From an uncultured Candidatus Saccharibacteria bacterium (GTDB lineage Bacteria > Patescibacteriota > Minisyncoccia > Minisyncoccales > GWA2-38-27), in contig CAYUSS010000002.1 in NCBI GenBank assembly GCA_964447515.1, forward strand, positions 11,020 through 75,019: DNA of 64,000 bases, written 5' to 3'. The number at the start of each line of letters is the position of its first letter. Positions within the stretch are counted from its first letter, which is position 1. This document shows, piece by piece, positions 16,085-61,344 of this stretch. Position numbers and translations under genes: made by a program. The notes beneath the pieces are model-generated. The model was not told where the DNA came from, searched no databases, and worked only from the letters and a program-made list of their open reading frames with translations.

Positions 16085-16088
16085 AATT

Positions 16089-17686: not shown

Positions 17687-17690
17687 GATA

Positions 17691-17776: not shown

Positions 17777-17784
17777 TACAGAAT

Positions 17785-19061: not shown

Positions 19062-19068
19062 TATAAAT

Positions 19069-22758: not shown

Positions 22759-22765
22759 AAAAATT

Positions 22766-24091
22766 ATGACCGAAAAATTTGTGATCCAAGGAGGAAAAAC
22801 TTTAAAAGGAACCATTGAGGCCAGAGGGGCAAAAAATGCCGCTCTTCCGATATTAGCCGCCACCCTCTTGACTAAAGAACCTTGTATTATTGGCAACCTT
22901 CCTTTAATTGAGGATGTTTTCAAAATGCTGAAGATTTTAGAAGGGTTGGGAGCTGAAATTTCTTGGCTGGGGAAAAGAAAAATTAGAATAAAATGTTCAA
23001 ATATTAATCCTTCAAAACTTCCCTGGGATATTGTTGGTTGTCTTAGAGGTTCGGTTTTAATTTTAGGGCCGCTTTTAGCCCAATTTGCCAAAATAAAAAT
23101 TCCTTCGCCGGGTGGTTGTTTAATTGGTGCCAGACCCTTAGACAGCCATTTAGATGCTTTTTCTCAGGCAGGTATTAAAGTTTCATCAAAAGATAAATTT
23201 TATTACTTTACAACACCCGACGTTGAGGAATTGGCGCCAGAGGCGCCAAGGGAAACGTCGGGTGTTAAGGAATTAAAATTTAAGCCTATAGAAATTATTC
23301 TTAGGGAATTTAGTGTTACTGCAACCGAAAATATTCTTTTGTTTTCTGTTCTTAGGGCCAAGAAAACTATTTTGAAAATTGCTGACCAAGATTATCAGGT
23401 TCAAGAATTAACCAAAGTTCTTAAAAAAATGGGAGCAAAAATTAAACCGAGTGGGGTCCATATCCTGAATATTATTGGTCAAAAAAAATTAAAAGGATTT
23501 AATCATTATTTAATGTCAGACCCCATAGAAGCAGGAACTTTTATTGTAGCAGCATTAGCAACCCAGGGAGAAGTCTTGATTAAAAACGCTGAGTTTTCTT
23601 TTCTTGAACTTTTTTTAAAGCATCTTCGGGATTTTGGGGCGAAAATTGAAATTTTAGGCCCAAAAACAATCAAGGTTTTTCCTTCAAGGAAACTTAAAAT
23701 GGATAAAGTCCAAAGTTCACCTTATCCCGGCATTCACACCGATTTACTGCCGGAACTTGGAGTTTTAGCTACTCAAACCGAAGGTCTTACCTTAATTCAC
23801 GACCCCTTATATGAAAGTCGGCTTAAATACCTTGAAGAATTAAATAAAATGGGGGCTGATATAATTTTTTGCGACCCTCACCGGGCAATAATTAACGGCC
23901 CCACCTTGCTTAAGGGGATTGAAATTCCCAGTTCTGATATTCGAGCCGGAGCTGCCCTGATTATTGCCGGATTAATAGCTAAAGGAAAAACAATAATTGG
24001 TAATATTTATCAAATTGATAGGGGATACGAACGTATTGAGGAGCGCTTTCAGAAATTGGGGGCAGATATTAAAAGAATATCAGAGAAATAG
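22766..24091 (+). CDS. murA: UDP-N-acetylglucosamine 1-carboxyvinyltransferase
   Basis: FVIQGGKTLKGTIEARGAKNAALPILAA..., active-site-loop Cys context (PGGCLIGARPLD), C-terminal YQIDRGYERIEERFQKLGA. An in-frame 56-bp palindrome lies at 23211-23266. Confidence 0.93.
   Translation: MTEKFVIQGGKTLKGTIEARGAKNAALPILAATLLTKEPCIIGNLPLIEDVFKMLKILEGLGAEISWLGKRKIRIKCSNINPSKLPWDIVGCLRGSVLILGPLLAQFAKIKIPSPGGCLIGARPLDSHLDAFSQAGIKVSSKDKFYYFTTPDVEELAPEAPRETSGVKELKFKPIEIILREFSVTATENILLFSVLRAKKTILKIADQDYQVQELTKVLKKMGAKIKPSGVHILNIIGQKKLKGFNHYLMSDPIEAGTFIVAALATQGEVLIKNAEFSFLELFLKHLRDFGAKIEILGPKTIKVFPSRKLKMDKVQSSPYPGIHTDLLPELGVLATQTEGLTLIHDPLYESRLKYLEELNKMGADIIFCDPHRAIINGPTLLKGIEIPSSDIRAGAALIIAGLIAKGKTIIGNIYQIDRGYERIEERFQKLGADIKRISEK
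23211..23266. repeat. short form of the ACACCCGACGTT...AACGTCGGGTGT nested palindrome, in frame in murA
   Basis: CAACACCCGACGTTGAGGAATTGGCGCCAGAGGCGCCAAGGGAAACGTCGGGTGTT. Encodes TPDVEELAPEAPRETSGV. Confidence 0.85.
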
Positions 24092-24299: not shown

Positions 24300-25328
24300 A
24301 TGTTTTCTAAAAAAATTGGCATTGATCTGGGAACTTGTAACTCTGTAGTTTTTATTCCTCGTAAAGGGGTGGTTTTGAACGAACCTTCAGTAGTAGCAGT
24401 TAGTGTCTCTGAAAATAGAATTTTAGCAGTGGGACAAGAAGCCAAAGAAATGACTGGCCGGACTCCAGATACTATAAGAGTTTACCGACCATTAAAAGAT
24501 GGAGTGATTGCTGATTATCGCGTTACCCAGGCAATGATAAGATATTTTATTAAAAAAATAACAAGGTCTTTCAATTTTTTGAAACCAGAATTATTAATCG
24601 GGGTTCCGGCCGGCATTACCTCAACCGAAAAAAGAGCGGTGATTGAAGCTGGGATGACAGCCGGTGCCAAAGCAGTATATGTTGCTAAAGAGCCTATTTT
24701 AGCTGCGATTGGCGCTGGAATTCCTATCAATTCTTGCTCGGGCCATATGATTGTTGATATTGGTGGAGGGACCTCAGAAGTGGCTGTGATTTCTCTTGGA
24801 GGAATAGTAACTTCCTCTTCTTTGAGAACGGGTGGAGATAAAATAGACCAGGCAATCTCAAATTATATCAAAGAGAGACATAATTTAGCTATCGGCGAGC
24901 AAACTACCGAGGAAATAAAAATAAAAATCGGTAGCGCCTTGTCAGAAAAATCCTCTAAAGACGAACAGGTTTCTGAGAGGAAGTTAGAAATTCGAGGTCG
25001 AGATTTAATTTCAGGATTGCCCAGAAATCTTATAGTTTCATCTAATGAAATTCAAGAGGCAATTTTTGACCGACTTCATGAAATTGTTCAAGTAATTAAA
25101 ACGGTTTTGAGAGATACACCTCCTGAACTTTCAGCCGATATTATAGATAAAGGAATGGTTCTTTCTGGAGGGGGGGCAATGCTTAGAAATATTGACGAAC
25201 TTATTGCTCAATCTACTGGTGTTCCTTGTTTTTTAGCTGATGAATCATTATTTTGCGTAGCGAAGGGAACTGGAGTAGTGCTTGAAAACCTTGAGGCCTA
25301 TAAAAAGAGCATAATGACAAAGAAATAA
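24300..25328 (+). CDS. mreB: rod shape-determining protein MreB (paralog 1)
   Basis: IGIDLGTCNSVV, DIGGGTSEVAVISLGGIV, VLSGGGAMLRNIDELI. Confidence 0.92.
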   Translation: MFSKKIGIDLGTCNSVVFIPRKGVVLNEPSVVAVSVSENRILAVGQEAKEMTGRTPDTIRVYRPLKDGVIADYRVTQAMIRYFIKKITRSFNFLKPELLIGVPAGITSTEKRAVIEAGMTAGAKAVYVAKEPILAAIGAGIPINSCSGHMIVDIGGGTSEVAVISLGGIVTSSSLRTGGDKIDQAISNYIKERHNLAIGEQTTEEIKIKIGSALSEKSSKDEQVSERKLEIRGRDLISGLPRNLIVSSNEIQEAIFDRLHEIVQVIKTVLRDTPPELSADIIDKGMVLSGGGAMLRNIDELIAQSTGVPCFLADESLFCVAKGTGVVLENLEAYKKSIMTKK

Positions 25329-25337
25329 AATCTCGAA

Positions 25338-25442
25338 ACCTGTAACCTGTAACTTATAACCTGTAACCTGTAACCCTCTTGAGTTATAAGTTACAAGTTA
25401 TAAGTTACAAGATTTGGGTTACGAATTACAAGTTGCAAGTTA
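25338..25442. repeat. GTTACAA/TTGTAAC-type word hairpin upstream of holB
   Basis: Left arm ACCTGTAACCTGTAACTTATAACCTGTAACCTGTAACCC, right arm GAGTTATAAGTTACAAGTTATAAGTTACAAG... It shares the leader TCTCGAAAC with 15986-16084. Confidence 0.8.
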
Positions 25443-26340: not shown

Positions 26341-26394
26341 ATAAACACGGGTCCGACCCGTGCAACCTGTACGGGTCGGACCCGTGTAAACCCT

Positions 26395-26960: not shown

Positions 26961-28097
26961 ATGCTTTTAACCATTATCATTGCTTTTATAAGTCTTATCG
27001 GACTAATTATTCTTCACGAATTAGGGCACTTTTTATTGGCGAAGAAATTTGGAGTAAAAGTTGAAGAGTTCGGCCTAGGGTATCCTCCTCGATTATTTGG
27101 TAAAAAATTTGGCGAAACGATTTATTCTTTAAATCTTTTACCATTAGGAGCTTTTGTTAAGCTCTACGGACACGAGGAAAGGATTGACGATCCTCGTAGT
27201 TTTACCACCAAGCCTTTTTGGCAAAAAGCTTTAATTATTTTAGGCGGTGTTATTTCTTTTTGGGTGGTCGCCGCAATTTTACTGACTATTGTAATGTATT
27301 TGGGCATTCCGACGCAGATAGGGGATGATGAAAATCATAATTTAGTTGAGCCAAAGGTTCAAATTATGGCTGTTGCTCCGGCTTCTCCGGCCGAAAAAGC
27401 GGGAATAAAGGTTGGAGACGCGATAATAAAAATCAAAAATGAACAAGTTCCTCGCAAGCGAGAGCAAGAAGGAGCCGTAGACTCGTCTACGACAGCAAAA
27501 ATCAAAAATATCAGTAAGATAAAGGAAGTTCAAGAACTTACAGAAAAATACAAAGGCCAAGAGATTGCTTTAACAATTCAACGAGGAAAAGAAATATTTG
27601 ACGTTTCCTTAATTCCCCGAGAGACGCCCCCTAAAGACGAGGGAGCAATGGGAGTGGCTTTGATCAGAACAGCCCTGAAGTCCTATTCCTGGTACCAAGC
27701 TCCAGTTCAGGGAATTTTAGCTACTGGTAACTTAACTCGGATGGTAATTGAGGGATGGGGAATGACTATTTCCAGTTTGTTTCAGGGTAAAGGAATACCT
27801 GCTGGTGTTGAATTAAGAGGACCGGTGGGAATTTTTGAACTATTCGCTCAAGTAGGAAGTTTAGGACTAACTTATTTTTTGCACTTTATAGCTTTAATTT
27901 CTATTTGTTTGGCTTTAATTAATGTTTTGCCCATTCCTTCCTTAGATGGCGGGTGGTTGTTCTTTCTTGTTATTGAGAAAATAAAAGGAAAGCCAGTAAG
28001 TCAGAAAATTGAGCAAAAAATTACTGTCGTTTTCTTTTGTCTATTAATAACTTTAATGATTTATGTAACAATAAAAGATATCGCCAGAATTTTCTAA
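26961..28097 (+). CDS. rseP: RIP site-2 metalloprotease (M50, RseP-like) with PDZ domain
   Basis: HELGHF, PDZ segment SPAEKAGIKVGDAII, NVLPIPSLDGG. An in-frame repeat insertion lies at 27428-27509. Confidence 0.88.
   Translation: MLLTIIIAFISLIGLIILHELGHFLLAKKFGVKVEEFGLGYPPRLFGKKFGETIYSLNLLPLGAFVKLYGHEERIDDPRSFTTKPFWQKALIILGGVISFWVVAAILLTIVMYLGIPTQIGDDENHNLVEPKVQIMAVAPASPAEKAGIKVGDAIIKIKNEQVPRKREQEGAVDSSTTAKIKNISKIKEVQELTEKYKGQEIALTIQRGKEIFDVSLIPRETPPKDEGAMGVALIRTALKSYSWYQAPVQGILATGNLTRMVIEGWGMTISSLFQGKGIPAGVELRGPVGIFELFAQVGSLGLTYFLHFIALISICLALINVLPIPSLDGGWLFFLVIEKIKGKPVSQKIEQKITVVFFCLLITLMIYVTIKDIARIF
27428..27509. repeat. composite insert in rseP: G+C-rich palindromes flanked by direct AAAAATCAAAAAT words
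   Basis: AAAAATCAAAAAT occurs at both ends. Core contains CTCGC-AA-GCGAG and GTAGAC-TC-GTCTAC. It shares GTCTACGACAGCAAAAATC with the pheT insert at 35568-35608. Confidence 0.75.
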
Positions 28098-28108
28098 TTC
28101 AAATTATT

Positions 28109-28236
28109 AGGGTGTTGAATAATTATTTTTCAGCGTAATTTCAGCGTATAGTTCAGCGTGGTTCAGCGATAAAACTATGCTAATGCTGAACAACGCCGAT
28201 ATCTACGCTGAACAACGCGGAATTATTCAACGGTCT
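28109..28236. repeat. 128-bp CAGCG-word hairpin element, copy R (inverted; immediately upstream of mreB paralog 2)
   Basis: Reverse complement of 22631-22758 with 5 mismatches. Confidence 0.85.
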
Positions 28237-28242
28237 AATTAC

Positions 28243-29295
28243 ATGATTAATAAATTTTTTTCCTATTTTTCAAATGACATAGCTATTGATTTGGGAACTG
28301 CTAACTCATTAGTTTATGTTAAAGGTAAGGGGATAGTTATTAATGAGCCTTCAGTAGTAGCCATAAATCAAAAAACAGGTCAAATTTTAGCAATCGGCGA
28401 AGAGGCCCAAAAAATGGTTGGTCGAACCCCGGCTCATATTGTTGCCATCAGGCCCTTGGTTGATGGAGTCGTTTCTGATTTTGAAGTTACAGAGCAAATG
28501 TTAAAATACTTTATTGAGAAGGTTCACAAGAGGAGATTTGTTTTGGGTTCCCGGCCCAGGGTTATTATCGGAATTCCCTATGGAGTAACCGAGGTTGAGA
28601 AAAAAGCAGTTTGCGATGCTGCCAAAAATGCTGGCGCCAGGCAGATATTTTTAATAGAAGAACCAATGGCAGATGCTATTGGGGCCAGGTTAACCGTTCA
28701 AGAGGCAGGAGGTAATTTCATCGTTGATATTGGAGGGGGCACCACTGAAGTAGCGGTAATTTCTCTTGGCGGGATAGTTATTGCAAAAAGTCTTCGGATC
28801 GCCGGAGATAAACTTAATGAAGATATAGTTCAATTTGTTCAAGAGGAATATAAATTATTAATTGGCGAGAGGACAGCCGAGAGGGTTAAAATTGGAATTG
28901 GTTCTGCTTTTCCCTTGAAAGAGAGAGCGGAGTTTCCCCTACGAGGCAGAAATATAATAACCGGGCTTCCAGAAGAAATTTTGATTTCTGATAAAGATAT
29001 AAAGCGGGCTTTAGAAAAGTCGGTAAAACAAATTGTTACAGCTGTAAAGACCACAATAGAAGAAACTCCCCCTGAACTTTTAGCTGACATTATGTCAAAA
29101 GGGATCTATCTTGCTGGTGGCGGCAGTCTTTTAAGAGGATTGGATACTTTAGTTCAACAAGAAGTAAAAATTCCTACTAAAATTATTGAAGATTCAACAA
29201 CAGCAATGGTTAGGGGGGCAGGGATGGTTTTGGAAAAACTCGATGAATTGCATGAAGTATTAACAGGGGTAGAGGATATGGAACCACCCCGATAA
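28243..29295 (+). CDS. mreB: rod shape-determining protein MreB (paralog 2)
   Basis: IAIDLGTANSLVYV, DIGGGTTEVAVISLGGIV, YLAGGGSLLRGLDTLV. Start moved to ATG 28243 because track start 28177 lies inside the repeat. Confidence 0.92.
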   Translation: MINKFFSYFSNDIAIDLGTANSLVYVKGKGIVINEPSVVAINQKTGQILAIGEEAQKMVGRTPAHIVAIRPLVDGVVSDFEVTEQMLKYFIEKVHKRRFVLGSRPRVIIGIPYGVTEVEKKAVCDAAKNAGARQIFLIEEPMADAIGARLTVQEAGGNFIVDIGGGTTEVAVISLGGIVIAKSLRIAGDKLNEDIVQFVQEEYKLLIGERTAERVKIGIGSAFPLKERAEFPLRGRNIITGLPEEILISDKDIKRALEKSVKQIVTAVKTTIEETPPELLADIMSKGIYLAGGGSLLRGLDTLVQQEVKIPTKIIEDSTTAMVRGAGMVLEKLDELHEVLTGVEDMEPPR

Positions 29296-29336
29296 AAATT
29301 TTCAATTTTCAATTTTCAATTTTCAATTTACAAATA

Positions 29337-29657: not shown

Positions 29658-31073
29658 ATGAGTCTTCACCAATTAAGTATTGTTCAAGCTCATGATGGAC
29701 TTTTAAAGAAAAAGTTCTCTGCTTTGGAGCTAGCTAAGGCCTTTTTGGACAGAATAAAAACTGAGGATAAAAAGATTTCCGCTTTTTTAACAGTGACTGA
29801 AGATTTAGCCCTTTCTCAAGCGAAAAGAGTTGATGATTTAATTTCTGTTGGTGAAGATATTCCTTTATTGGCTGGAATTCCTTTAGCTGTTAAAGATAAT
29901 ATTTTGATTGAAGGGATTAAGACAACTTGTGCTTCAAAAATCCTTGAAGATTATATTGCGCCCTATGATGCCACTTGTATAGAAAAACTTAAGAAACTTG
30001 GGGCAGTGATTTTAGGGAAGACAAATTTAGATGAATTTGCCATGGGCGCTTCAACTGAAAATTCAGCATTTTTCCCGACAAAAAATCCTCATGATTTAAA
30101 TCGGGTACCTGGCGGTTCTTCAGGGGGCTCTGCAGCTGCCGTAGCTGATGATTTATGCTGCTATGCCCTGGGTTCTGATACAGGCGGTTCAATTAGGCAA
30201 CCTGCTTCTTTCTGTGGGGTAAAGGGTTTGAAACCCAGCTATGGAGCAGTTTCCCGTTACGGTTTAACTGCTTTTGCTTCTTCTTTGGATCAGATAGGGA
30301 CTATAACAAAAACAACCGAGGATGCTAAAATTGTTTTTGAGGCAATTGCCGGCAAGGACCCAAAAGATTCAACCAGTGTAGCAATAAATAAAAAGTTACA
30401 AGTTACAAGTTACAAATTACAAGATTTAAAGATCGGCGTTCCCAAGGAATATTTCGTAGAGGGAATAGATAAAGAGGTCGAAAAAGTGATTAAAGATGCC
30501 ATTAAGAAATTTGAAAATTTTGGAGCAAAAATAGAAGAAATTAGTTTACCTCATACAAAATATGCTGTACCTATTTATTATCTTATTGCTACTTCTGAGG
30601 CATCAGCTAATTTAGCCAGATATGATGGAATAAAATACGGACTCTCAAAAAACCAGGGACAAAATTTATTAGACGTTTATTTACGGAGTAGAGTAGAGGG
30701 TTTTGGAGATGAGGTTAAAAGAAGAATTATGCTGGGGACCTACGCTCTTTCGGCTGGTTATTACGAAGCTTATTATTTAAAAGCCCAGAAAGTTAGAACA
30801 TTAATTAAAGAAGATTTTGATAGGGCCTTTCAAAAAGTTGATGTTATTTTTTCTCCAACTGCTCCAACTCCTGCCTTTAAAATCGGAGAAAAAATTATTG
30901 ACCCTCTCTCAATGTATTTATGCGATATCTTTACTGCTCCGGTAAGTCTGGTTGGGTTACCGGCTGTTTCAATCCCGGTCGGTTTTGTTGGAAAGTTACC
31001 GGTTGGTTTGCAGATTATTGGAAAACCATTTGAGGAAAATAAAATTTTAAAAATTGGTCAATTAACTGAATAA
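29658..31073 (+). CDS. gatA: Asp/Glu-tRNA amidotransferase subunit A
   Basis: Amidase signature [12 protein letters not shown]...[12 protein letters not shown]. An in-frame GTTACAA word repeat lies at 30395-30423. Confidence 0.93.
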
Positions 31074-31592: not shown

Positions 31593-31638
31593 TATAAATA
31601 AAACCGTTCCATCTTAATCTAAAACCCGACATTAATCT

Positions 31639-31675
31639 AAAACCCGACGTTGAGGATTTTTAAACGTCGGGTTTT
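31639..31675 (+). terminator. hairpin AAAACCCGACGTT...AACGTCGGGTTTT (mini-copy of the CCCGACGTT element) acting as a likely terminator
   Basis: 13-bp arms followed by a T run, downstream of the 31083..31592 ORF. Confidence 0.55.
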
Positions 31676-31688
31676 GTATTTGTGGTTG

Positions 31689-31781
31689 AAACCCGACGTT
31701 GAGGAATTGGCGCCAGCCCGCCCAAGTTTTTCAGAAAAAAATTTAGGCGGGCCAGAGGCACCAAGGGAAACGTCGGGTTTT
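31689..31781. repeat. long (nested) form of the CCCGACGTT palindromic element, intergenic
   Basis: AAACCCGACGTTGAGGAATTGGCGCC-[GCCCGCC...GGCGGGC insert]-AGAGGCACCAAGGGAAACGTCGGGTTT. Confidence 0.8.
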
Positions 31782-34119: not shown

Positions 34120-34124
34120 ATTTT

Positions 34125-34143
34125 ACAGAGGGTCGCCCTCTGT
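34125..34143. repeat. REP-like hairpin ACAGAGGGTCGCCCTCTGT between pheS and pheT
   Basis: Perfect palindrome of the family that flanks the RAYT-like gene at 8520..9302. Confidence 0.75.
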
Positions 34144-34150
34144 TAACTTT

Positions 34151-36238
34151 ATGATTTTTTCATATAATTGGCTGCAATCGTTTTTTCAAAAGAAGTTACC
34201 AAAACCAGAGAAGCTGGCAGAGGTTTTGACTATGCATAGTTTTGAAGTGGAAGAAGTCAAAAAAGTAGGCAAAGATTTTGTCTTAGATATTGACGTTTTA
34301 CCAAATAGGGGACCAGATTGTTTTTCTCACATAGGAATAGCTCGTGAGTGCGCGGCTATAACAGAATTAAGAATTAAGAATCAAGAATCAAGAATAAAAG
34401 AAGATAAAAAACTAAAAGCCGAGGACTTTATTAAAGTAAAGGTTCGAGACAAAGAAGATTGTTATCGCTATACTGCCAGAGTTGTTGCCGATGTAAAAAT
34501 TGGCCCTTCGCCAAAATGGATTCAAGAGAGATTAAGAGTTTGTGGATTGAGGCCAATTAATAATATTGTAGATATTGCAAACTATGTAATGTTAGAAACT
34601 GGTCAGCCTCTTCACGCTTTTGATTTTGATAAAATTGAAGGTGGTAAAATTAAAGAAATAATTGTCAGAAAAGCAAGAGAAGGAGAGAAAATTGTAACGC
34701 TTGATGATGAAAAATATAACTTAGACAAAGACGTCTTAATTATTGCTGACCAAAAAAGACCTTTAGCCGTTGCTGGAGTAAAAGGAGGCAAAAAAGCAGA
34801 GATAGATAAAAATACCAAAACTGTTGTTTTGGAATCAGCTAACTTTAATCCCCGGGTTGTTCGCAGGGGTTCTAAGAAATTAAATTTAAAAACCGATGCT
34901 TCTTGGCGATTTGAGCATGGAATTGATCTTGATTTAACAGAAATAGCAATTAATCGGGCAGCTGATTTGATTCAGGAGATCGCTAAAGGTAAAATTACCT
35001 CGGGTTTGGTTGATGTTTATCCCAAGAAAGTTTTACCAAAGAAAATTAAACTGGATTTAAATTATGTTGAAGAATTATTGGGAATAAAAATACCAGAAAA
35101 AGAAATAAAAAATATTTTCCAGAGATTAGAATTTAAAATAACACAAGTCAGCCCTATGCAATTAGTAGTGGAGGTGCCGACTTTTAGGCTTGATATTTTT
35201 ATACCAGAGGATTTAATTGAAGAAATTGGTAGAATTTACGGATATCAGAAAATTCTAGCTACTTTTCCTGTTGTCTCTTTAATCCCTCCGAAAAAAAACT
35301 TCCAAATTTTTTGGGAGGATATCATAAAAAATATTTTAAAAGAAGCTGGCTTTGCAGAAATTTATAACTATTCCTTTATTGGAGATAAGGAATCTAAAAT
35401 TTTTGATTATAAAAATAGAGAGGTTATTGAATTAGAGAATCCAGTTAGTTCAGAGCAAAAATATTTGAGGCCAAGCTTAATTCCTAATTTATTAAAGAAT
35501 GTAGAAAGTAATTTTAGATACTTTGATGAAATCAAAGTTTTTGAGTTGGGAAAGATATTCAGAAAAAGGACCCTACGGGGAGTCTACGACAGCAAAAATC
35601 CAAAAATGGTTGAAAGAAAAATGATATCCGCTTTGATTGCTGAAAAAGGGAATAGTGGCGAATTATTTTATCGGTTAAAGGGAACTGTTGATTTGTTATT
35701 AAATAAACTTGGTATAAGCGATGTCTGGTATGATGATTATCGGCAAACTCCAGAGGAGAGTAAAATAATAATTTGGCATTCAAAAAAATGTGCAGAAATC
35801 AAAGTTGGTTCAGAAGAGATTGGATTTTTAGGAGAAATTTCTCCCAGAGTTTTAAAAGATTTAAATCTTAAAGGAAAAATAGTTTTGTTTGATTTAGATT
35901 TTGGAAAGCTCGTAAAACTTTGTTCTGAAGAACATGAATATCAGCCAATTTCTCAGCATCCGTCAGCGGTTCGAGATTTGGCAGTGTTGGTGCCGAGAGG
36001 TGTTAGGGTGGTGGAGGTTTTAAACAAAATTGGAGCTGTTAGCGGTTCTTTGGTAAGAGATGTTGACCTTTTTGATATTTACGAAGGGGAAGAGCTTCCC
36101 CGAGGAAAAAAGAACTTGGCTTTCCATATAATTTATCAAGCGGAAAATAGAACTTTGAAGTCAAAAGAAGTGGATAAGGTGCAGGAGAAGATAATCAGGT
36201 TATTAGAAAAAGATCCCGAGTGGCAGGTACGACGATAA
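34151..36238 (+). CDS. pheT: phenylalanine--tRNA ligase subunit beta (short form)
   Basis: B3/4 domain (NNIVDIANYVMLETGQPLHAFD), B5 and a C-terminal FDX-ACB-like domain. It follows pheS. In-frame repeat inserts lie at 34365-34395 and 35568-35608. Confidence 0.9.
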   Translation: MIFSYNWLQSFFQKKLPKPEKLAEVLTMHSFEVEEVKKVGKDFVLDIDVLPNRGPDCFSHIGIARECAAITELRIKNQESRIKEDKKLKAEDFIKVKVRDKEDCYRYTARVVADVKIGPSPKWIQERLRVCGLRPINNIVDIANYVMLETGQPLHAFDFDKIEGGKIKEIIVRKAREGEKIVTLDDEKYNLDKDVLIIADQKRPLAVAGVKGGKKAEIDKNTKTVVLESANFNPRVVRRGSKKLNLKTDASWRFEHGIDLDLTEIAINRAADLIQEIAKGKITSGLVDVYPKKVLPKKIKLDLNYVEELLGIKIPEKEIKNIFQRLEFKITQVSPMQLVVEVPTFRLDIFIPEDLIEEIGRIYGYQKILATFPVVSLIPPKKNFQIFWEDIIKNILKEAGFAEIYNYSFIGDKESKIFDYKNREVIELENPVSSEQKYLRPSLIPNLLKNVESNFRYFDEIKVFELGKIFRKRTLRGVYDSKNPKMVERKMISALIAEKGNSGELFYRLKGTVDLLLNKLGISDVWYDDYRQTPEESKIIIWHSKKCAEIKVGSEEIGFLGEISPRVLKDLNLKGKIVLFDLDFGKLVKLCSEEHEYQPISQHPSAVRDLAVLVPRGVRVVEVLNKIGAVSGSLVRDVDLFDIYEGEELPRGKKNLAFHIIYQAENRTLKSKEVDKVQEKIIRLLEKDPEWQVRR

Positions 36239-36338
36239 CAATTTTACAATTTTACAATTTAAAAATAAATTTAATAATTTTAAAATTCTAACATTTAATA
36301 AAAATTCTTAAATTCTAAAATTCTAAAATTTTTTAAGC

Positions 36339-38693: not shown

Positions 38694-38760
38694 GAACCTG
38701 CTCGCTGCGCTCGCAGAACCTTGATTCGCTAAAGTATGAATAACATATAATCTTAAATTA
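38694..38760 (+). repeat. GAACCTG...CAGAACCTTGATTCGCTAA...TATAATCTT module upstream of nusG (short form of the 141-bp gatB unit)
   Basis: Shares both ends with 42779-42919. TATAAT at 38746-38751 lies 9 nt before the ATG, with no SD between them. Confidence 0.7.
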
Positions 38761-42749: not shown

Positions 42750-42778
42750 CATTTTTCATTATTTGATAAAATTAATAT

Positions 42779-43060
42779 AAGAACCTGACTTCGTCAGAAC
42801 CTTGATTCGCTAAGGTATAGAAAACATATTGCGGCTTCGTCGCATAATTGCTTCACTCGGTTGAAGAAGAAAAATAAATTTTTCTTTTTCTCCCTCGTTT
42901 GCAATTATAATCTTGAATTAAGAACCTGACTTCGTCAGAACCTTGATTCGCTAAGGTATAGAAAACATATTGCGGCTTCGTCGCATAATTGCTTCACTCG
43001 GTTGAAGAAGAAAAATAAATTTTTCTTTTTCTCCCTCGTTTGCAATTATAATCTTGAATT
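42779..43060 (+). repeat. perfect tandem duplication, 2 x 141 bp, ending at the gatB start codon
   Basis: 42779-42919 and 42920-43060 read identically base for base. Each unit is the nusG-upstream module plus a ~75-bp internal palindromic insert. Confidence 0.9.
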
Positions 43061-45525: not shown

Positions 45526-46838
45526 GATGTTTGATGATAACAAATTTCTCCTCTTAATCCAAAAGAATCAACTTTGACGATTTTGACAGTATCTATATTG
45601 CCAATATCTATTTTTTGTTCTTTGTTCTTTATTCTTTGTTTAATTTTCACCGTCTTAAAACTCCTTGTTTTGCCCAAAACAAAGCCATCTTTGATTTTCT
45701 CAATCAAGACTTTCACAGTTTTGCCAACATATTTTTTATTTTTTTTCAAGGCGGCTTTTTTGAGCATGTCTGTAAGAATTTTTTCTCTTCTCTTTTTTTC
45801 TTGAGGAGAAACATTATCTTCCATTTTAGCAGCCAGCGTGCTCGGTCGGGGAGAGTAGCGGGCAATATATGCCATATCAAATTTTATTTCTCTCATCAAT
45901 TTAGCGGTATTTTCAAATTGTTTTTTTGTTTCTCCAGGAAACCCGACAATAACGTCTGTGGAAATAGCAACAGGCAATTCGCCGGGCCGGTATTTTTTAA
46001 ATGCCTGTCTGATTTTTTTAATTAAATTTTTATAATGACTAACAGTATAATGCCGGTTCATTTTTTTTAAAACCTGATTATCGCCGCTCTGAGCTGGCAA
46101 ATGCACATATTCGCAAACTTTTCGGCTTTTTGCCATTGTTTCAATTAACTCATCAGACATATCTTTAGGATGACTGGTGATAAACCGCAGCCAAAAATCG
46201 CCTCGTATGTCGTTAATCATTTTTAATAATTTAGGAAAATTTATTATTTTTGATTTTTGCCTGCCCGTCGTAGCCTTGGCGTAGGCGGGAATTTTGGATT
46301 TGGAATTTATTTGGGATTTGATGCTTGGGATTTTGGATTTATAACTATTGACATTCTGCCCTATTAAAACAACCTCTTTATAGCCCTTTTTGACTAAAGA
46401 TTCTACTTCGCGAATAATTTCCGAGGTAGGGCGTGATATTTCTCGTCCCCGAGTATATGGGACAACGCAATAAGAACAGAAATTATTACAACCAGTCATA
46501 ATTGGCACAAAAGCAGTAAAATTGCTTTGGTATCGCGGCTGACATCCAAAATAACTGCTAGGATGCCAAAAACCAGCCACTTTATCTTTCAGTGCCTTTT
46601 TATCTTTTTCCAAAACACAGCCAGTCAAGATAATTTTTTTGGCTTTATAATATTTATTTACTTTAGCATAAACTCGGTCAACGGCTGATTGTCTGACGGA
46701 ACAAACATTAATAATAATTAAATCAGCCTGATTTTCTTTTTTAACCGGCTTATGTCCAGATTTTTCCAAAACTGCAGCAATTTTTTCACTATCTGATTTG
46801 TTCATCTGGCAGCCAAAAGTAATAATGAAGTATTTCAT
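45522..46838 (-). CDS. miaB: tRNA-2-methylthio-N6-dimethylallyladenosine synthase (radical SAM MTTase)
   Basis: N-terminal Cys triad (FGCQMN, NVCSVR, GCV), radical-SAM CNNFCSYC, C-terminal TRAM domain. An in-frame repeat insert lies at about 46245-46340. Confidence 0.9.
   Translation of the reverse strand: MKYFIITFGCQMNKSDSEKIAAVLEKSGHKPVKKENQADLIIINVCSVRQSAVDRVYAKVNKYYKAKKIILTGCVLEKDKKALKDKVAGFWHPSSYFGCQPRYQSNFTAFVPIMTGCNNFCSYCVVPYTRGREISRPTSEIIREVESLVKKGYKEVVLIGQNVNSYKSKIPSIKSQINSKSKIPAYAKATTGRQKSKIINFPKLLKMINDIRGDFWLRFITSHPKDMSDELIETMAKSRKVCEYVHLPAQSGDNQVLKKMNRHYTVSHYKNLIKKIRQAFKKYRPGELPVAISTDVIVGFPGETKKQFENTAKLMREIKFDMAYIARYSPRPSTLAAKMEDNVSPQEKKRREKILTDMLKKAALKKNKKYVGKTVKVLIEKIKDGFVLGKTRSFKTVKIKQRIKNKEQKIDIGNIDTVKIVKVDSFGLRGEICYHQTS
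46245..46340. repeat. composite insert in miaB: G+C-rich palindrome flanked by AAATC/GATTT words
   Basis: Core CCTGCCCGTCGTAGCCTTGGCGTAGGCGGG at 46261-46290. Encodes KSKIPSIKSQINSKSKIPAYAKATTGRQKSKIINF on the minus strand. Confidence 0.75.
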
Positions 46839-48007: not shown

Positions 48008-49696
48008 TTAGTGGATTTTCTCTTTTTTCTCCTTCAAAAAGTATCTCCATTGTTCTAAGAATTCTATGAAAACTGAAAAGGGCATATCAATTAAAGCAGT
48101 GAAAAAGACAGCTATAATATTATATCTTTTCCAGCGGCCTGTTAGCCATTTTCCTAATTGAATTATAGGCACCGCAAATAAGTCAACAAGGAAAGGAAGA
48201 AATGTTTCTTTTTCTTCAATCACCTCTAATTCTTTAGCTCTTTGTCTGATTTTTGCTCCGGCAAAAGTAATTAAAGAGAAAAAGATAATAAAAATTAAAT
48301 AAGAAAGAGGAGGAAAGTTTATCTGATAAAGCCCCCAAACTATTAAGCTGATAATAATACAAAAGCCAAGAAGATAGAAAAGCTTTATTACCACATTAAA
48401 AATAAAACTTTTTTTTGGGAAGGCCTTTATTTCGTAAATATCTTTTTTTTCTCTTTGATAGACAATTTTCATAACTTCCATTATTGTCTGTTCAAGATTT
48501 CCTTTTCTTGGGGGTCTAATAGTGATAACCAAAAAGAACATTAAAACAGTGGGAACAACAATATCTATGGCCATAGCTGAAGGATAAAAAGCACAGTCGG
48601 TAACCCATTTGTTAAAAGGAATTTCTATAGCCAGGAGGGAGACAATGTTAGTAAGAAAAATCGATAAAGTAGCATAGAAAGCAGCTCTGCCCAATCGTGA
48701 TTTAAGAGTTTTTAATCTCTTGTTATAAACTTTCCTGATTAAACTTTCTAAAATCTCCGGTTTTGAGATTTTTTCTTTTATTACCATTGGTTCTTCAGAA
48801 ATAATATCTCCCAAAAGCAAATAAGGAGTATCATATTTTTCAGAGATTTGATAGAACTTGCCTGCAAAAGGATGATTCAAATCTTTTTCTATAGTTTCCC
48901 GAATTGAATAAATATTTCTGGTAATTTCCTTAAGCTCGGTTTCTGAAAAATTTTTCCATTTTGGATATTGATATTTTAAAAGATGGTAACTGATGATTGG
49001 CCAATCCAATTTAAATAAGGCCTGCTGGACTGCAATATAAATTTGGATGTTTTTTTCTTTTTCATTCATTCCTTTTATTGCTAAGGTTTCTTGGTTTACC
49101 CCGTTAGAGATACTTTCCTTCTGTGTTTTTTCTCTTCCCTCGGAATCTCTAACGGGGTTGAGCTTAATCCGTTCTTTCATTAATTCAAACATATAGTTTA
49201 TTAAAGCTCTTTCTCTCAAGGAAGGACTGATGATTTCCTCTATTTCGCAGGCAGCAATTGAAGATAACCAGGTATAAAGTTGAATTTTTGATTTTTTTTG
49301 TTGGGAGGGACTATGATTTAGAATAAAAACATATTTATCAATTATCCCTTGAACTTCTTTAATTTTTGTTTCCTCAATTTTATTATTTGGGAAATGTCCG
49401 CCCCGAATTAATTCTAAGATTAGAGGTTTAGCAATTAAATTTTTAGAAAAACCTCCATTAACTATATCTATCTGTGAAAAAAGTCTTCTTTTTAATATTC
49501 TTTCAATTGCTCTTCTTTTTAAAAGATATTCTTCTTTCCAGTCTATAATTCCTCTTATTTTTTCGTAAAAAGCGGCCACTCTTGAGGCGACTTCATCCAC
49601 ATGAATTGTTGGCACTCCTTCTTTGGGTTGGAGAGATTGATGCCAAAATTGATACTGCTGAATAAGTTTTTGAGTTGGCTGAGAAAATTCAGGCAT
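48008..49696 (-). CDS. hypothetical multi-pass membrane protein
   Basis: 562-aa ORF with several C-terminal TM segments. An in-frame palindrome lies at 49099-49157. Confidence 0.5.
   Translation of the reverse strand: MPEFSQPTQKLIQQYQFWHQSLQPKEGVPTIHVDEVASRVAAFYEKIRGIIDWKEEYLLKRRAIERILKRRLFSQIDIVNGGFSKNLIAKPLILELIRGGHFPNNKIEETKIKEVQGIIDKYVFILNHSPSQQKKSKIQLYTWLSSIAACEIEEIISPSLRERALINYMFELMKERIKLNPVRDSEGREKTQKESISNGVNQETLAIKGMNEKEKNIQIYIAVQQALFKLDWPIISYHLLKYQYPKWKNFSETELKEITRNIYSIRETIEKDLNHPFAGKFYQISEKYDTPYLLLGDIISEEPMVIKEKISKPEILESLIRKVYNKRLKTLKSRLGRAAFYATLSIFLTNIVSLLAIEIPFNKWVTDCAFYPSAMAIDIVVPTVLMFFLVITIRPPRKGNLEQTIMEVMKIVYQREKKDIYEIKAFPKKSFIFNVVIKLFYLLGFCIIISLIVWGLYQINFPPLSYLIFIIFFSLITFAGAKIRQRAKELEVIEEKETFLPFLVDLFAVPIIQLGKWLTGRWKRYNIIAVFFTALIDMPFSVFIEFLEQWRYFLKEKKEKIH
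49099..49157. repeat. CCCCGTTAGAGAT...ATCTCTAACGGGG palindromic element (perfect 13-bp arms) in frame in the membrane ORF
   Basis: Encodes NPVRDSEGREKTQKESISNGV on the minus strand. Same family as 13535-13593. Confidence 0.8.
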
Positions 49697-54781: not shown

Positions 54782-54840
54782 TCAACACCCGATGTTGAGG
54801 AATTGGTGCCAGAGGCGCTAAGGGAAACGTCGGGTGTTGA
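54782..54840. repeat. short form of the ACACCCGA(C/T)GTT nested palindrome, intergenic (dnaE / rpmF divergent spacer)
   Basis: TCAACACCCGATGTTGAGGAATTGGTGCCAGAGGCGCTAAGGGAAACGTCGGGTGTTGA. Confidence 0.8.
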
Positions 54841-56425: not shown

Positions 56426-57022
56426 ATGTTAAGAATTCGTTTTTTTCGAATAGGTAAAAAAAATCAACCTTTATTCAAAATTGTAGTTACAGATAAGAAA
56501 AAACCTCCAAGAGGCGGTCGTTTTGTGGAAGAGGTTGGATTTTGGAATCCTTTAACTAAGGAAAAAGTTTTGAAAAAAGAAAGAATCAAATATTGGTTAT
56601 CAGTAGGAGCCAAATCCTCAGACACGGTTTACAATTTATTAATAAAAGAGGGGATTTTAAAGGGGAAGAAGATTTCCCTACATAAGAAGAAAAAAGAAAA
56701 ACCCGCTTCCGCTGACTCGGCCTCCGTAGCCGAAGCTACTTCGGCGAAGGGGGCTACGACGGGCAAGAAAGAAAAACCGCCCACCGTCCCGCCTGCTGCC
56801 ACGTCAGAGGGGGGAAAGCCCACAGAGGAAAAAACAAAGAAAAAGACCGAAGAGAAACCAGCTGAGGTGCCAAAAGAAGAAACCAAGCAGAAACAGAAAC
56901 CTGAAGCAGAACCCGCAGAACAAAAACCCGAAGAAAAACCTAAAGAGGAAAAGGAAAAATCAAAAATCGAAGGACCCAAAAAAGAAGAACAGAAAGCCCC
57001 AATTGGTCTTGACAAAGATTAA
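56426..57022 (+). CDS. rpsP: 30S ribosomal protein S16 with ~110-aa Lys/Glu/Pro-rich C-terminal extension
   Basis: MLRIRFFRIGKKNQPLFKIVVTDKKKPPRGGRFVEEVGFWNPL is typical of S16. The extension includes a G+C-rich palindromic insert at 56701-56767. Confidence 0.9.
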   Translation: MLRIRFFRIGKKNQPLFKIVVTDKKKPPRGGRFVEEVGFWNPLTKEKVLKKERIKYWLSVGAKSSDTVYNLLIKEGILKGKKISLHKKKKEKPASADSASVAEATSAKGATTGKKEKPPTVPPAATSEGGKPTEEKTKKKTEEKPAEVPKEETKQKQKPEAEPAEQKPEEKPKEEKEKSKIEGPKKEEQKAPIGLDKD

Positions 57023-57846: not shown

Positions 57847-58572
57847 ATGATTAAGTTTGGTATCATTACAATTTTTCCTGAGATTTTTAATTCTTACTTA
57901 TCAGAGAGTTTAATCGCCCGTGCTTTAAAGAAAAAATTGATAAAAATTAAAATTCACAATTTAAGAGATTGGACTTCTGATAAACACAAAACTATTGATG
58001 ACCGGCCTTTTGGTGGGGGGCTTGGAATGATTATGAAAGTAGAGCCAATATTCAAGGCGGTTTCTGATTTAAGGGAAAAAAGCTTGCCTCGCAGCATCCG
58101 AGCAAAGAGAGAATTGGCGGGGGGCCAAAAATCAAAAGTAATTCTTTTTTCTCCCCGCGGTAAAAAATTTAATCAGAAAATGGCTTACCAGTTTTCCAGA
58201 TTAAACCATTTAATTATGATTTGCGGTCGCTACGAAGGAGTTGACGAAAGAGTAGCTAAATATATTGCCGATGATGTAATTTCCATTGGCGATTACGTTT
58301 TAATGGGTGGCGAGCTACCAGCAATGATTGTTATGGAGACAGTGGCTCGTTTAATTCCCGGAGTTATTGGAAAAGAACAATTGCTCAAAGAAAGAATTCC
58401 AACAAAACCCGGCCGCGGGGGCAGGGGATTTATTGAATATCCACAATATACCAGGCCAGAGCTATTTTTTTCAAAAAAGGGTCTGAATTGGAAGGTTCCA
58501 AAAATTTTATTATCTGGCAATCATAAAAAAATTGAAGAATGGCGGAAAAAACACAAAAAAATTATAGAGTAA
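57847..58572 (+). CDS. trmD: tRNA (guanine37-N1)-methyltransferase
   Basis: FGIITIFPEIF, DDRPFGGGLGMIM, ICGRYEGVDERV, SIGDYVLMGGELPAM. Start moved to ATG 57847. An in-frame insert lies at 58081-58135. Confidence 0.92.
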   Translation: MIKFGIITIFPEIFNSYLSESLIARALKKKLIKIKIHNLRDWTSDKHKTIDDRPFGGGLGMIMKVEPIFKAVSDLREKSLPRSIRAKRELAGGQKSKVILFSPRGKKFNQKMAYQFSRLNHLIMICGRYEGVDERVAKYIADDVISIGDYVLMGGELPAMIVMETVARLIPGVIGKEQLLKERIPTKPGRGGRGFIEYPQYTRPELFFSKKGLNWKVPKILLSGNHKKIEEWRKKHKKIIE

Positions 58573-58687
58573 TTATACTATATAATTGCGGCGTTCGGTT
58601 AAAAAAGAAGAATGAATTTTTCTTCTTTTCCCTCACTTACAATTATTGAAAAATAACGATTTTTGTGATAGAATAAACAAATAATTA

Positions 58688-58861: not shown

Positions 58862-59023
58862 ATGGCAAAAAAGAAACCATTTATAAAACTTCAATGTCAG
58901 GAGTGTAAGAGAATAAATTATTTTACTCAAAAATCAAAAAAAATGGCTGAGGAGAAGTTAGAATTGAAAAAATTCTGCAAGTGGTGCAGACGACATACCT
59001 TACATAAGGAGACGAAGAAGTGA
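58862..59023 (+). CDS. rpmG: 50S ribosomal protein L33
   Basis: Not in the track (53 aa). [53 protein letters not shown] has the two CxxC pairs typical of L33. Confidence 0.9.
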
Positions 59024-59050
59024 TAATCATGGAAAGAAAAAGAGCCGAGC

Positions 59051-59701: not shown

Positions 59702-59715
59702 GTCCGTGTATTGAT

Positions 59716-59775
59716 TTGAAAAAATTCTGCAAATGGTGCAGGAAGCATACGGTGCACAAAGAGACGAAGAAGTAA
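59716..59775 (+). pseudogene. rpmG: orphan duplicate of the last 19 codons of rpmG
   Basis: 60 nt with 49/60 identity to 58964-59023. Encodes [19 protein letters not shown]-stop, against [19 protein letters not shown]-stop in the intact gene. Confidence 0.8.
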
Positions 59776-59795
59776 TATCCCGAGAACGGTTCTCG

Positions 59796-59961: not shown

Positions 59962-60519
59962 ATGGCGATTTTGGAAATTAAAAAATTTAATGAGCCGGTT
60001 TTGAGGAAAAAGTGTAAAGAAGTTCACCCCGTTAAATCCGCCGAAGGCGGTGCGAAGCAATTTAACGGGGTAAAAAAAGTTGATAAAAAACTCAGAGAAC
60101 TTATTGTTGATATGGCTCAGACAATGGAAAAAGAGCAGGGAATTGGGTTGGCTGCTCCTCAGGTCGGGATATCAAAAAGAGTGATTACGGTGCTTAATTT
60201 GGAGAATCGGCGCATTTTAAGTTTGGTTAATCCCAAAATTTTAAAAAAGAGTCAGGAGACGGAAATAGGTGAAGAGGGATGTTTGAGTTTCCCTAATATT
60301 TTTCTAAAAATAAAAAGAGCCAAAGAAATAGAAGTTGAAGGCGTAGATATAAACGCTAAAAAGATTAAATTAAAAGCTAAAGGGCTTTTGGCTCGAGTTT
60401 TTCAGCACGAAATTGACCATTTGGACGGGATTTTATTTTTCAACCGCTTGAATTTTGCCCAGAGAATAAAATTTAAATTAAAACATCCTTCAATAATTAC
60501 AAGTGAGGGAGAAAAATGA
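59962..60519 (+). CDS. def: peptide deformylase
   Basis: GIGLAAPQVG, EGCLSFP, HEIDHLDG. An in-frame palindrome at 60025-60072 encodes HPVKSAEGGAKQFNGV. Confidence 0.92.
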   Translation: MAILEIKKFNEPVLRKKCKEVHPVKSAEGGAKQFNGVKKVDKKLRELIVDMAQTMEKEQGIGLAAPQVGISKRVITVLNLENRRILSLVNPKILKKSQETEIGEEGCLSFPNIFLKIKRAKEIEVEGVDINAKKIKLKAKGLLARVFQHEIDHLDGILFFNRLNFAQRIKFKLKHPSIITSEGEK

Positions 60520-60630
60520 AAATAAATTTTCATTTTTCGACCGAGCGCCGTAATTATATAGTAAATTGTTAAATTGACTCTATAAGAAATGTTTAAGATG
60601 TTCAACACCCGACCTTGAACACCCGAATAT

Positions 60631-61344
60631 ATGAATTTGATTGATTCTTTGATTAAAGATGGCTGGCTAAAGACGCCGAGAATAATTAAAGCTTTTCAAG
60701 AAATAAAAAGGATTGATTTTTTACCAGAAGATATTAAAAATTTAGCGGATTTAAACGAAGCTTTATCTATTGGCCATGGCCAGACAATTTCCCAACCCTT
60801 AGTGGTTGCTTTTATGATTGAACAATTACAGCCAGAACCCGGAGAAAAGATTTTAGATATTGGTTCTGGTTCTGGATGGACAACGGCTCTTTTAGCTCAG
60901 ATAGTGGGGACAGACTACAACCCGCCCACCACGTCCGAGGTGCCTGCCGAAGGCAGGAGGGTGGAGGGAGGGTTGGAATCCCACTCGCCTAAAGGCGAGC
61001 GAGCCTCTGGAAAAATTATCTCCATAGAGCTCATTCCGGAATTAAAAAAATTTGGTGAGCAAAATGTAGCAAAATATAATTTTATAGAAAAAGGGCTCGT
61101 GGAATTTATTTGTGGGGATGGTTCTAAGGGTTATAAAAAAGAAGCTCCTTTTAATAGAATCCTGGCTTCTGCCTCGGCAGAAAAAATTCCTCAATCCTGG
61201 AAAGAACAAATAAAAATCAATGGTAAGATAGTCGCTCCTATTAAATCTTCGATTTGGGTTTTAGAAAAAAAATCTAAAAGCGAATTTGAAGAAATTGAAT
61301 ATCCCGGTTTTGCTTTTGTTCCCTTAATTGAAAAAGAAAAATGA
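60631..61344 (+). CDS. pcm: protein-L-isoaspartate O-methyltransferase
   Basis: TISQPLVVAFMIE, SAM motif ILDIGSGSGWTTALLA. A ~100-bp G+C-rich palindromic insert (60907-61008) lies right after motif I. Confidence 0.85.
   Translation: MNLIDSLIKDGWLKTPRIIKAFQEIKRIDFLPEDIKNLADLNEALSIGHGQTISQPLVVAFMIEQLQPEPGEKILDIGSGSGWTTALLAQIVGTDYNPPTTSEVPAEGRRVEGGLESHSPKGERASGKIISIELIPELKKFGEQNVAKYNFIEKGLVEFICGDGSKGYKKEAPFNRILASASAEKIPQSWKEQIKINGKIVAPIKSSIWVLEKKSKSEFEEIEYPGFAFVPLIEKEK
60907..61008. repeat. G+C-rich multi-palindrome insert in frame in pcm
   Basis: Contains CCTGCC-GAA-GGCAGG, CCCACC.../...GGGTGG and CTCGCC-TAAA-GGCGAG. Encodes DYNPPTTSEVPAEGRRVEGGLESHSPKGERAS. Confidence 0.75.

Follow-up and report, generated by a model that had tools for sequence, protein, structure and literature searches.

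A 64-kb stretch of contig CAYUSS010000002.1 (hereafter the window, to whose positions all coordinates refer; ~35% G+C) carries short DNA inserts in frame within many of its protein-coding genes. At least 13 well-supported events were counted in the 64 kb, and no frameshifts or stops were found in the host genes, whose open reading frames (ORFs) are all intact; the hosts are therefore not decaying genes. Pfam confirms the hosts alaS, rseP, pheT, rpsP, trmD, pcm, def and miaB. Another host, an ORF at 20853-22484 that had been named PEGA, gives no significant Pfam match and is therefore called PEGA-like here. The closest proteins to the window TrmD (up to 71%) come from metagenome-assembled genomes (MAGs) of the Parcubacteria/Nealsonbacteria type, and the population to which the window belongs was assembled in several JGI and Logan samples (JGI 3300031551, 3300031554 and 3300031864 being source samples). 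An Rfam scan of the window returned tRNAs only, with no structured RNA family at the inserts.

The initial annotation of this DNA had proposed that a single family of palindromic, G+C-rich cores with AAAAATC-type flanks interrupts these genes at high density while keeping their frames open. The density and the open frames are borne out. A single family is not, as BLAST links only the miaB core, two copies in the PEGA-like ORF (at 21870 and 21968) and rpsP. Clustering does yield families, but at least three of them (F1, F2 and F3) are unrelated, and they are accompanied by a repetitive extragenic palindromic (REP) sequence associated with a gene resembling those for REP-associated tyrosine transposases (RAYTs), and by several one-off palindromes.

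Inserts were delimited in alignments of orthologs from relatives gathered around TrmD (80 loci) and around the PEGA-like ORF (29 loci), and an unbiased scan covered every window ORF with at least four orthologs. Related loci or genomes are given L-numbers and MiaB homologs P-numbers. Repeat families were defined by all-against-all BLAST and comparison within the window, and palindromy is expressed as a DNA folding z-score relative to dinucleotide shuffles. The inserts are not conserved ancestral segments, since orthologs and solved structures lack them. Among the hosts named initially, alaS, rseP, trmD, pcm, def and miaB are interrupted by comparison with orthologs, whereas pheT is a weak case and the rpsP tail is variable in all orthologs. 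The scan added inserts in murA, in an FtsA-like gene, in ORF 48008-49696 and at a second site in alaS. When private inserts of at least 8 amino acids were counted in the same alignments, the window had 1.2 per 1000 amino acids compared to a median of 0.26 for 49 related loci, with a few relatives comparable.

Family F1 is present as two intragenic and two to three intergenic copies. Its termini follow the pattern AACACCCGACGTT...AACGTCGGGTGTT, with terminal inverted repeats ACACCCGACGTT / AACGTCGGGTGT, and it occurs as a 56-nt short form and as a long form of ~100 nt in which a second hairpin is nested centrally. The long copy within the PEGA-like ORF is 93% identical over 91 nt, in complementary orientation, to a copy that lies between genes (21702-21792 versus 31691-31781). 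The short copy in murA is 100% complementary to the PEGA-like copy over 34 nt and 95% identical to the intergenic copy at 54783-54838.

All four copies of F2 in the window are intragenic, with a 52-nt form in def and the PEGA-like ORF and a 65-nt form in the FtsA-like gene and ORF 48008-49696, and their terminal inverted repeats are AACCCYGTTARA and its complement. The two short copies are 83% complementary over 52 nt and the two long ones match at 77% over 65 nt. The def and PEGA-like copies have the same DNA orientation and are read in different frames, and their likeness is therefore one of DNA rather than of peptide. F1 and three of the four F2 copies fold with z-scores of about -6 to -8 and have strong dyad symmetry. 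The F2 terminus AACCCYGTTARA is found in at least ten related species, often immediately after a TAA stop codon. The N-terminal region of def does not align to solved deformylases. Because F1 lies both inside and between genes and F2 is read in two frames, the inserts are DNA elements and not conserved peptides. The PEGA-like ORF alone holds four inserts, all absent from its closest relatives (69% identical).

Family F3 was recognized through miaB, whose insert comprises an array of 7-nt words (46291-46340), a G+C-rich core and one copy of AAAAATCAAAAAT (46246-46258) that overruns the insert boundary by 8 nt. The 30-nt core, CCTGCCCGTCGTAGCCTTGGCGTAGGCGGG, had been reported correctly except for its coordinates, which are one base off and should read 46260-46289. 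As had been noticed, it recurs in the PEGA-like ORF, where a copy on the other strand matches at 27 of 30 positions; no second match arose in 100 shuffles with three mismatches allowed. Both host genes lie on the minus strand, and translation thus reads the two copies in opposite orientations, as PAYAKATTGR in MiaB and LPARSSLGEGGE in the PEGA-like ORF. A related copy proposed at 21968-22003 indeed belongs to the group linked by BLAST, and shares an exact 14-nt match with the copy at 21870. Together with this partial match and another in rpsP, F3 numbers two to four copies, all intragenic.

The miaB segment is absent from the solved Bacteroides uniformis MiaB (7mjz) and from about half of 44 Patescibacteria orthologs. 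The closest homolog, P0001/L121 (72% identical), has the same core at the same site, and in the next closest, P0002/L122 (71%), the site is empty. Alignment of the three DNAs is clean on either side of the insert, and this comparison of filled and empty sites reveals no target duplication. An AlphaFold model of MiaB built on the ortholog alignment has a mean pLDDT of 88 that falls to ~50 over residues 171-196, a stretch flanked by one strand and one helix of the radical-SAM barrel. Mapping onto structures, as the initial annotation had advised, gave a similar picture for pcm, whose insert falls at a single loop point (residue 102) of the solved PIMT structure 2yxe; the trmD insert is in an interdomain linker.

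Between the window and P0001/L121, miaB is 76% identical overall and 59% identical at third codon positions. In the right half of the insert, DNA identity rises to 94% and 15 of 15 third positions match, a small sample that suggests nucleotide-level constraint, homogenization or recombination. An F3-type copy in trmD of L014 retains a perfect 8-bp stem. Because the window copies lack this symmetry, they look like decayed palindromes, and such decay would fit with the sharing of the miaB core by a relative that is 72% identical. Other MiaB homologs (P0014, P0030, P0081, P0090 and P0009) contain repeat-derived peptides that recur between proteins and sites, such as HAALRGAGMNQNY at two N-termini, CHPEFISGS / CHPKFISGS, and IPAFAGMT. 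These peptides indicate further dispersed element families in Patescibacteria.

The alaS insert adjoining the RIIADH motif, located as originally described, adds ~29 amino acids net; five of seven orthologs are empty at this site, two carry different inserts, and the Aquifex aeolicus AlaRS is shorter here. The second alaS insert is absent from all seven orthologs and from solved AlaRS. The pcm insert is absent from about 20 of 25 orthologs, and the remainder carry unrelated inserts in the same loop. Likewise, the trmD insert is absent from the closest relative (L001) and from most of the 80 orthologs, and many lineages carry other inserts in that linker. The rpsP segment sits in a C-terminal tail that is of low complexity as well as variable among orthologs, and SAKAT.GK-type peptides occur downstream of rpsP in L007 (a DNA match) and in the rpsP tail of L018. 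In pheT at most ~8 residues are extra, in a loop that also varies among solved PheT structures. Relatives have private repeat-derived peptides of their own, as exemplified by PSTISAEKVRGG and PTRIASRSVAGG in two genes of L081.

The flanking words assigned to these inserts were confirmed in part. The sequence AAAAATCAAAAAT does stand on both sides of the rseP core, and rseP and pheT do share GTCTACGACAGCAAAAATC as well as an end module, (G)CTACGAC..GCAAAAATC. However, trmD carries GCCAAAAATC and not GCAAAAATC. The 13-nt direct repeat around the rseP core might be a target-site duplication, but it equals the local word array.

Such arrays are widespread. By chance, 4.1 occurrences of AAAAATCAAAAAT with at most one mismatch and 0.2 of GTTACAAGTTAC would be expected; the observed numbers are 16 and 17, respectively. 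Period-7 arrays dominate the output of Tandem Repeats Finder. Words such as AAAATC(C/A) and GTTACAA form these arrays, which are also present on their own in genes. Direct heptamer arrays lie inside tpiA, gatA, pheT, alaS and miaB, inverted ones fill the spacers at 15984-16088 and 25329-25413, and in alaS, rseP and miaB a G+C-rich core is nested within an array. Many MiaB lineages have KSQIPNPKSQI-type arrays at the same site, with or without a G+C-rich center. The AT-rich flanks are a separate dispersed repeat class made of tandem 7-nt word arrays. Sites of word arrays include tpiA (9837-9866), gatA (30393-30423), pheT (34363-34395) and positions 29297-29333 and 36238-36332; one array unit, CCTGTAA/TTACAGG, resembles the foot of the REP described below.

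Two candidate signals were set aside. GTCGTAG, considered as a GTAG/CGTC-type tag that might define the cores, is present in four coding inserts, but with five matches where 1.08 would be expected (3 of 100 shuffles gave at least as many) and no consistent position it is only weakly enriched. The A-rich sense flanks raised the idea of antisense intrinsic terminators; this does not suit the hairpins, which are weak and have no T-run beside them.

Table 1. Coordinates of inserts, repeat copies and the RAYT-like gene in the window (z, folding z-score).
Feature	Position	Strand	Evidence
F1 long form in PEGA-like ORF, nested inner hairpin, +~31 aa	21699-21804	-	z -8.3; absent from L081/L082 and most relatives
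F1 long form, intergenic	31687-31781		partial F1 copies at 31624-31680
F1 short form in murA, peptide TPDVEELAPEAPRETSGV	23208-23269	+	z -8.2; absent from most of 17 orthologs
F1 short form, intergenic	54783-54838		all-against-all comparison
F2a in PEGA-like ORF, TTAACCCTGTTAAAT...ATTTAACAGGGTTAA, +16 aa	21500-21551	-	z -8.0; absent from all aligned relatives
F2a in def, HPVKSAEGGAKQFNGV, +16 aa	60023-60074	+	z -5.8; absent from 19/19 orthologs
F2b in FtsA-like gene, NPVRDSGNKAKDQKEDISNRV, +21 aa	13533-13597	+	z -3.05; absent from orthologs
F2b in ORF 48008-49696, NPVRDSEGREKTQKESISNGV, +21 aa	49095-49159	-	z -6.1; ortholog scan
miaB in-frame insert, 29 codons, residues 167-195	46254-46340	-	ortholog alignments, structure, model
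F3 core copy in PEGA-like ORF	21870-21899	-	absent from closest relatives L081/L082
F3-like degenerate copy in PEGA-like ORF, peptide ESSSLLANRSLGE	21968-22013	-	absent from 14/14 aligned relatives
alaS insert, GTTACAA words flanking a unique G+C-rich imperfect palindrome, just before RIIADH	11712-11810	+	z -3.1
Second alaS insert, AT-rich AAAATC-type word array, ~19/24 codons extra	11502-11573	+	period-7 array
rseP insert, 17 aa, two small hairpins between a perfect 13-nt direct repeat AAAAATCAAAAAT	27428-27509	+	absent from 10/11 orthologs
pheT segment, shares GTCTACGACAGCAAAAATC with rseP	35568-35608	+	weak case; z -0.41
rpsP G+C-rich segment, shares GGCTACGACGGGCA with miaB core	56700-56767	+	z -1.5
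trmD insert in variable interdomain linker, SLPRSIRAKRELAGGQKS, not palindromic	58081-58139	+	z +0.9
pcm insert, ~31-33 aa, unique G+C-rich palindrome	60907-61008	+	z -3.5
RAYT-like gene for an IS200-like Y1 transposase, containing its own REP in frame (8726-8752)	8520-9302	+	PF01797
Two REP copies (ACAGGGGGCGACCC...) and tandemly duplicated REP feet upstream of RAYT-like gene	8434-8502		repeat comparison
Inverted REP copy and duplicated foot downstream of RAYT-like gene	9305-9351		repeat comparison

The window also encodes an IS200-like Y1 transposase, which matches PF01797 (E 3e-12) and has both the HUH motif (HIH) and the Tyr motif (YIHTNP). Among NCBIfam models it is most similar to NF047646 (REP-associated tyrosine transposase; E 1e-10), but the score of 41.7 bits is below the cutoff of 80. 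There are 2441 homologs, the top 120 of which are 56-84% identical; named matches come from Patescibacteria, and some homologs carry the JGI name RayT. The gene is flanked by inverted copies of ACAGRGGGTCGCCCYCTGT (8434-8483 and 9305-9331), and further REP-type hairpins are dispersed at 34123-34149, 26345-26387 and 22540-22558. These REPs end in TTAC...GTAA, and a conserved GTAG or CGTC tetranucleotide is lacking. The gene and its flanking REPs therefore have the appearance of a REP/RAYT-like system.

RAYT neighborhoods of three other genomes (L123, L125 and L126) were retrieved apart from the 109 related loci, against which a tblastn search with the RAYT-like protein gave one distant match. 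In all three, TTACA..GGTC.GACC..TGTAAA hairpins likewise flank the gene. The RAYT-like ORF is itself among those with an in-frame insert, and in the window, L125 (5001-5783) and L126 (5001-5792) this variable segment is the REP variant of the respective genome. Such covariation of internal and flanking REPs suggests concerted evolution or self-regulation. The words ACCCGAC / GGGTCGS, which were considered as a bridge between the RAYT REP and F1, are both enriched, but through different families.

Palindromes are by no means confined to genes. Folding z-scores below -3 (RNA parameters, mononucleotide shuffles) were obtained for 24 of 37 intergenic spacers compared to 2 of 41 control segments, and the copies within genes give the impression of spillover from palindromes that populate the whole genome. 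In the rplM-rpsI spacer (z -9.1), a larger inverted repeat encloses a strong G+C-rich hairpin (CCCCCGCCCCGCTGCAACGGGGCGGGGG; 19465-19527). A 135-nt inverted repeat with ACGCTGA-type words (22631-22765 / 28102-28236; 96% complementary) has one arm that extends into ORF 28177-29295 (MreB-like and paralogous to ORF 24300-25328) at its annotated N-terminus, and the true start of this ORF may therefore be further downstream. Word palindromes similar to this repeat lie between ribosomal protein genes at 15769-15886, 17685-17801 and 18987-19086. In the spacer before ORF 43061, a 141-nt unit is tandemly duplicated (42766-43047; 96-99% identical) and holds a 65-nt palindrome found again behind both trmD and def (58576-58650 and 60489-60563; also 38714-38748).

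Some additional features lie apart from these repeats. The 3′ part of a small Cys-rich ORF is present twice (58961-59025 / 59713-59777; 82% identical), once directly downstream of tRNA-Thr and once directly upstream of tRNA-Trp, and the two resemble paralogous small ribosomal-protein genes. A G+C-rich island (47% versus 35%) contains a 404-aa ORF (4037-5251, plus strand) with no Pfam match and an NCBIfam match to 'TIGR-Tas system RNA-guided endonuclease' (E 1e-22; 81 bits, cutoff 100). It is followed by 463 nt of non-coding DNA (5252-5714), where a hairpin unit at 5342-5398 has a similar counterpart 222 nt away at 5564-5620; these units could be its guide array.

We consider it about 75% probable that the inserts are REP- or MITE-like palindromic elements of several families (MITE, miniature inverted-repeat transposable element) that have inserted in permissive loops and are translated, making them a Patescibacteria counterpart of the palindromic elements of Rickettsia. 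Short palindromic elements of several families would have colonized this A+T-rich genome of Parcubacteria, Nealsonbacteria-like affiliation, where they would make up the bulk of most intergenic spacers and where some copies would land inside genes. Spread would be by copy-and-paste, through a trans-acting enzyme or through recombination, and the sole candidate enzyme in the window would be the conserved RAYT-like transposase with its own REPs. Copies would persist if their length is a multiple of three bases and they lack a stop codon, which is easy for G+C-rich cores, and if they encode hydrophilic peptides rich in Ala, Gly, Ser, Arg or Lys in surface loops or linkers. These copies would be transcribed and translated within the host protein rather than removed, and older ones, such as the F3 core of miaB and the PEGA-like ORF, would drift, lose dyad symmetry and pass vertically.

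Several observations weigh against this interpretation. Palindromic cores were claimed for all inserts and are found in alaS, pcm and def. In contrast, the segments of F3 (z +0.26 in miaB, +0.50 and +0.11 in the PEGA-like ORF), rseP (z -0.37), pheT and trmD have z-scores between -0.4 and +0.9 and thus no significant palindromy today. Each of the alaS, pcm and trmD inserts is unique within the window, so that their repeat nature is inferred. Neither a target-site duplication nor a consistent target (TTAC, as for IS608, included) is apparent at F1, F2 and miaB junctions, and no autonomous element with F1 or F2 ends exists in the 64 kb. Four contigs from separate samples contain the whole gene and encode the same 438-aa MiaB (a fifth ends within the gene), and no presence/absence polymorphism of the miaB insert was seen among them. 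The arrays in tpiA and gatA add no length, with each lineage having its own word at that loop, and simple insertion does not explain them. Finally, the housekeeping-gene families F1, F2 and F3 are distinct from the RAYT-flanking REP, whose sole match in coding DNA is inside the RAYT-like ORF, and a role for this enzyme in the coding inserts is therefore offered only as a hypothesis.

Alternatively, the elements might be more than tolerated junk, with a conserved trans-acting machinery, most plausibly the single-copy and vertically conserved RAYT-like Y1 enzyme, maintaining or rewriting them so that their nucleotides and not their peptides are constrained. Such machinery would recognize element ends, homogenize copies and perhaps act inside coding sequences. 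The third-position identity in the miaB insert, the recurrence of the F2 terminus after stop codons in other species, the genome-specific REP within each RAYT-like ORF, the conservation of RAYT homologs, and the lineage-specific words in orthologous loops of gatA, tpiA and MiaB are all as expected from this proposal. However, the third-position signal comes from 15 codons of one gene pair and recombination is an alternative, the RAYT REP has no sequence link to F1, F2 or F3, and the divergence and lost symmetry of F3 argue against ongoing homogenization. We view it as possible but doubtful. A bolder formulation, which strikes us as unlikely, is that a REP/RAYT-type system has been domesticated, with the conserved enzyme writing and homogenizing palindromes and heptamer arrays in permissive loops and spacers. 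This would explain the conservation of the miaB insert, the lineage-specific loop words and the REP carried by the RAYT-like gene itself, and, if true, would give streamlined essential proteins a continuing source of loop variation.

Three further explanations are each unlikely. Replication slippage and compositional drift could create fast-evolving, low-complexity loops in place, with coincidental likeness between genes. This would agree with the length variation of the trmD linker, rpsP tail, gatA loop and MiaB site in all lineages, with the abundance of period-7 arrays and with the cores that are not palindromic. Yet unrelated loci match at 27 of 30 and over 91 nt (93%), in both orientations where none would be expected, identical elements exist in intergenic DNA, GTTACAAGTTAC greatly exceeds expectation, and F1 and F2 have long perfect inverted termini. 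Slippage is thus improbable, and largely refuted already for F1, F2 and F3. The inserts could also be removed from the mRNA or, like byp elements in Magnusiomyces mitochondria, bypassed by the ribosome, an idea suggested by the resemblance of G+C-rich structured inserts in an A+T-rich genome to mitochondrial GC clusters. But every insert keeps the frame and lacks stops, which would be needless if it were skipped, none is long enough for a self-splicing intron, the Rfam result offers no structured RNA beyond tRNAs, and insert peptides are retained between the window and P0001, making this very improbable. We give least credence of all to chimeric joins at repeats during metagenome assembly. The contig is indeed metagenome-assembled and related contigs often break near repeats, but four of five contigs from separate samples agree on miaB with its insert, all inserts are in frame, and inserts of the same kind are present in MAGs from unrelated studies.

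Selfish DNA in essential genes is unexpected for streamlined genomes. There are also practical consequences, since peptides derived from inserts inflate protein lengths and break assemblies. The inserts also map, by natural means, where loops of MiaB, Def, PIMT, RseP, AlaRS, MurA and TrmD can accommodate 10-30 extra residues. A conserved RAYT-like gene with co-varying REPs in Patescibacteria is relevant to the biology of mobile elements. We found no study of RAYT, REP, REPIN, MITE or palindromic repeats in Patescibacteria (the candidate phyla radiation) in the open-access literature, of which our coverage is incomplete.

Each part of this repertoire has parallels elsewhere. Cyanobacteria have short tandemly repeated repetitive (STRR) sequences, which are dispersed tandem arrays with a 7-nt unit like those described here. 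The units differ, however, and the window arrays also occupy coding loops and flank G+C-rich cores. Yeast mitochondrial GC clusters and byp elements are G+C-rich palindromic mobile clusters in A+T-rich genomes that can be nested and also occur in coding regions, characteristics that the window inserts share. Both are organellar. The ribosome skips byp elements, which have no need to preserve the frame, whereas the window inserts always keep it. Intragenic bacterial MITEs that form in-frame fusions include QMITE1 of Coxiella, ERIC and the MITEs of Anabaena (PMC10969869, PMC5896051). F1 and F2 are similar in having terminal inverted repeats of 12-14 nt, variable centers and lengths of 52-105 bp, and in being non-coding alone but yielding in-frame additions to host ORFs. 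They differ in lacking target-site duplications and, within the 64 kb, a parent insertion sequence with matching ends.

REP and REPIN elements with RAYT transposases are established in E. coli, Pseudomonas and Stenotrophomonas, and REPs inside ORFs are reported in several species (PMC3733652). The Y1 gene of the window is comparably flanked by inverted, short, G+C-rich imperfect palindromes that are also dispersed and occur as doublets, and it recurs as a conserved gene in many related genomes, every one of which has a REP variant of its own. Nevertheless, the TTAC/GTAA ends replace the GTAG or CGTC tags, the protein scores below the NCBIfam RAYT cutoff, and the housekeeping inserts are not the flanking REP.

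The closest parallel in behavior is with the Rickettsia palindromic elements (RPEs; Ogata et al. 2000), as summarized in PMC10969869 and PMC3733652. According to these summaries, the first R. conorii family has 44 copies genome-wide, nearly half of them inside ORFs. As with RPEs so described, hosts remain intact, inserts are located where the fold tolerates them, and copies decay with age. The likeness is one of behavior, and the host here belongs to a phylum other than that of Rickettsia. The window elements are also shorter (~30-105 bp versus ~100-150 bp for RPEs as summarized there), have G+C-rich cores that are often nested in heptamer arrays within an A+T-rich genome, and are much denser, with at least 13 events in 64 kb compared to the 44 copies per genome of that first R. 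conorii family. A further difference is the presence of a RAYT-like gene in the window. We know of no transposase linked to RPEs. Protein-coding palindromes in frame were long held to be a specialty of Rickettsia, and here comparable behavior is encountered, at a much higher local density, in a free-standing branch of ultra-small bacteria.

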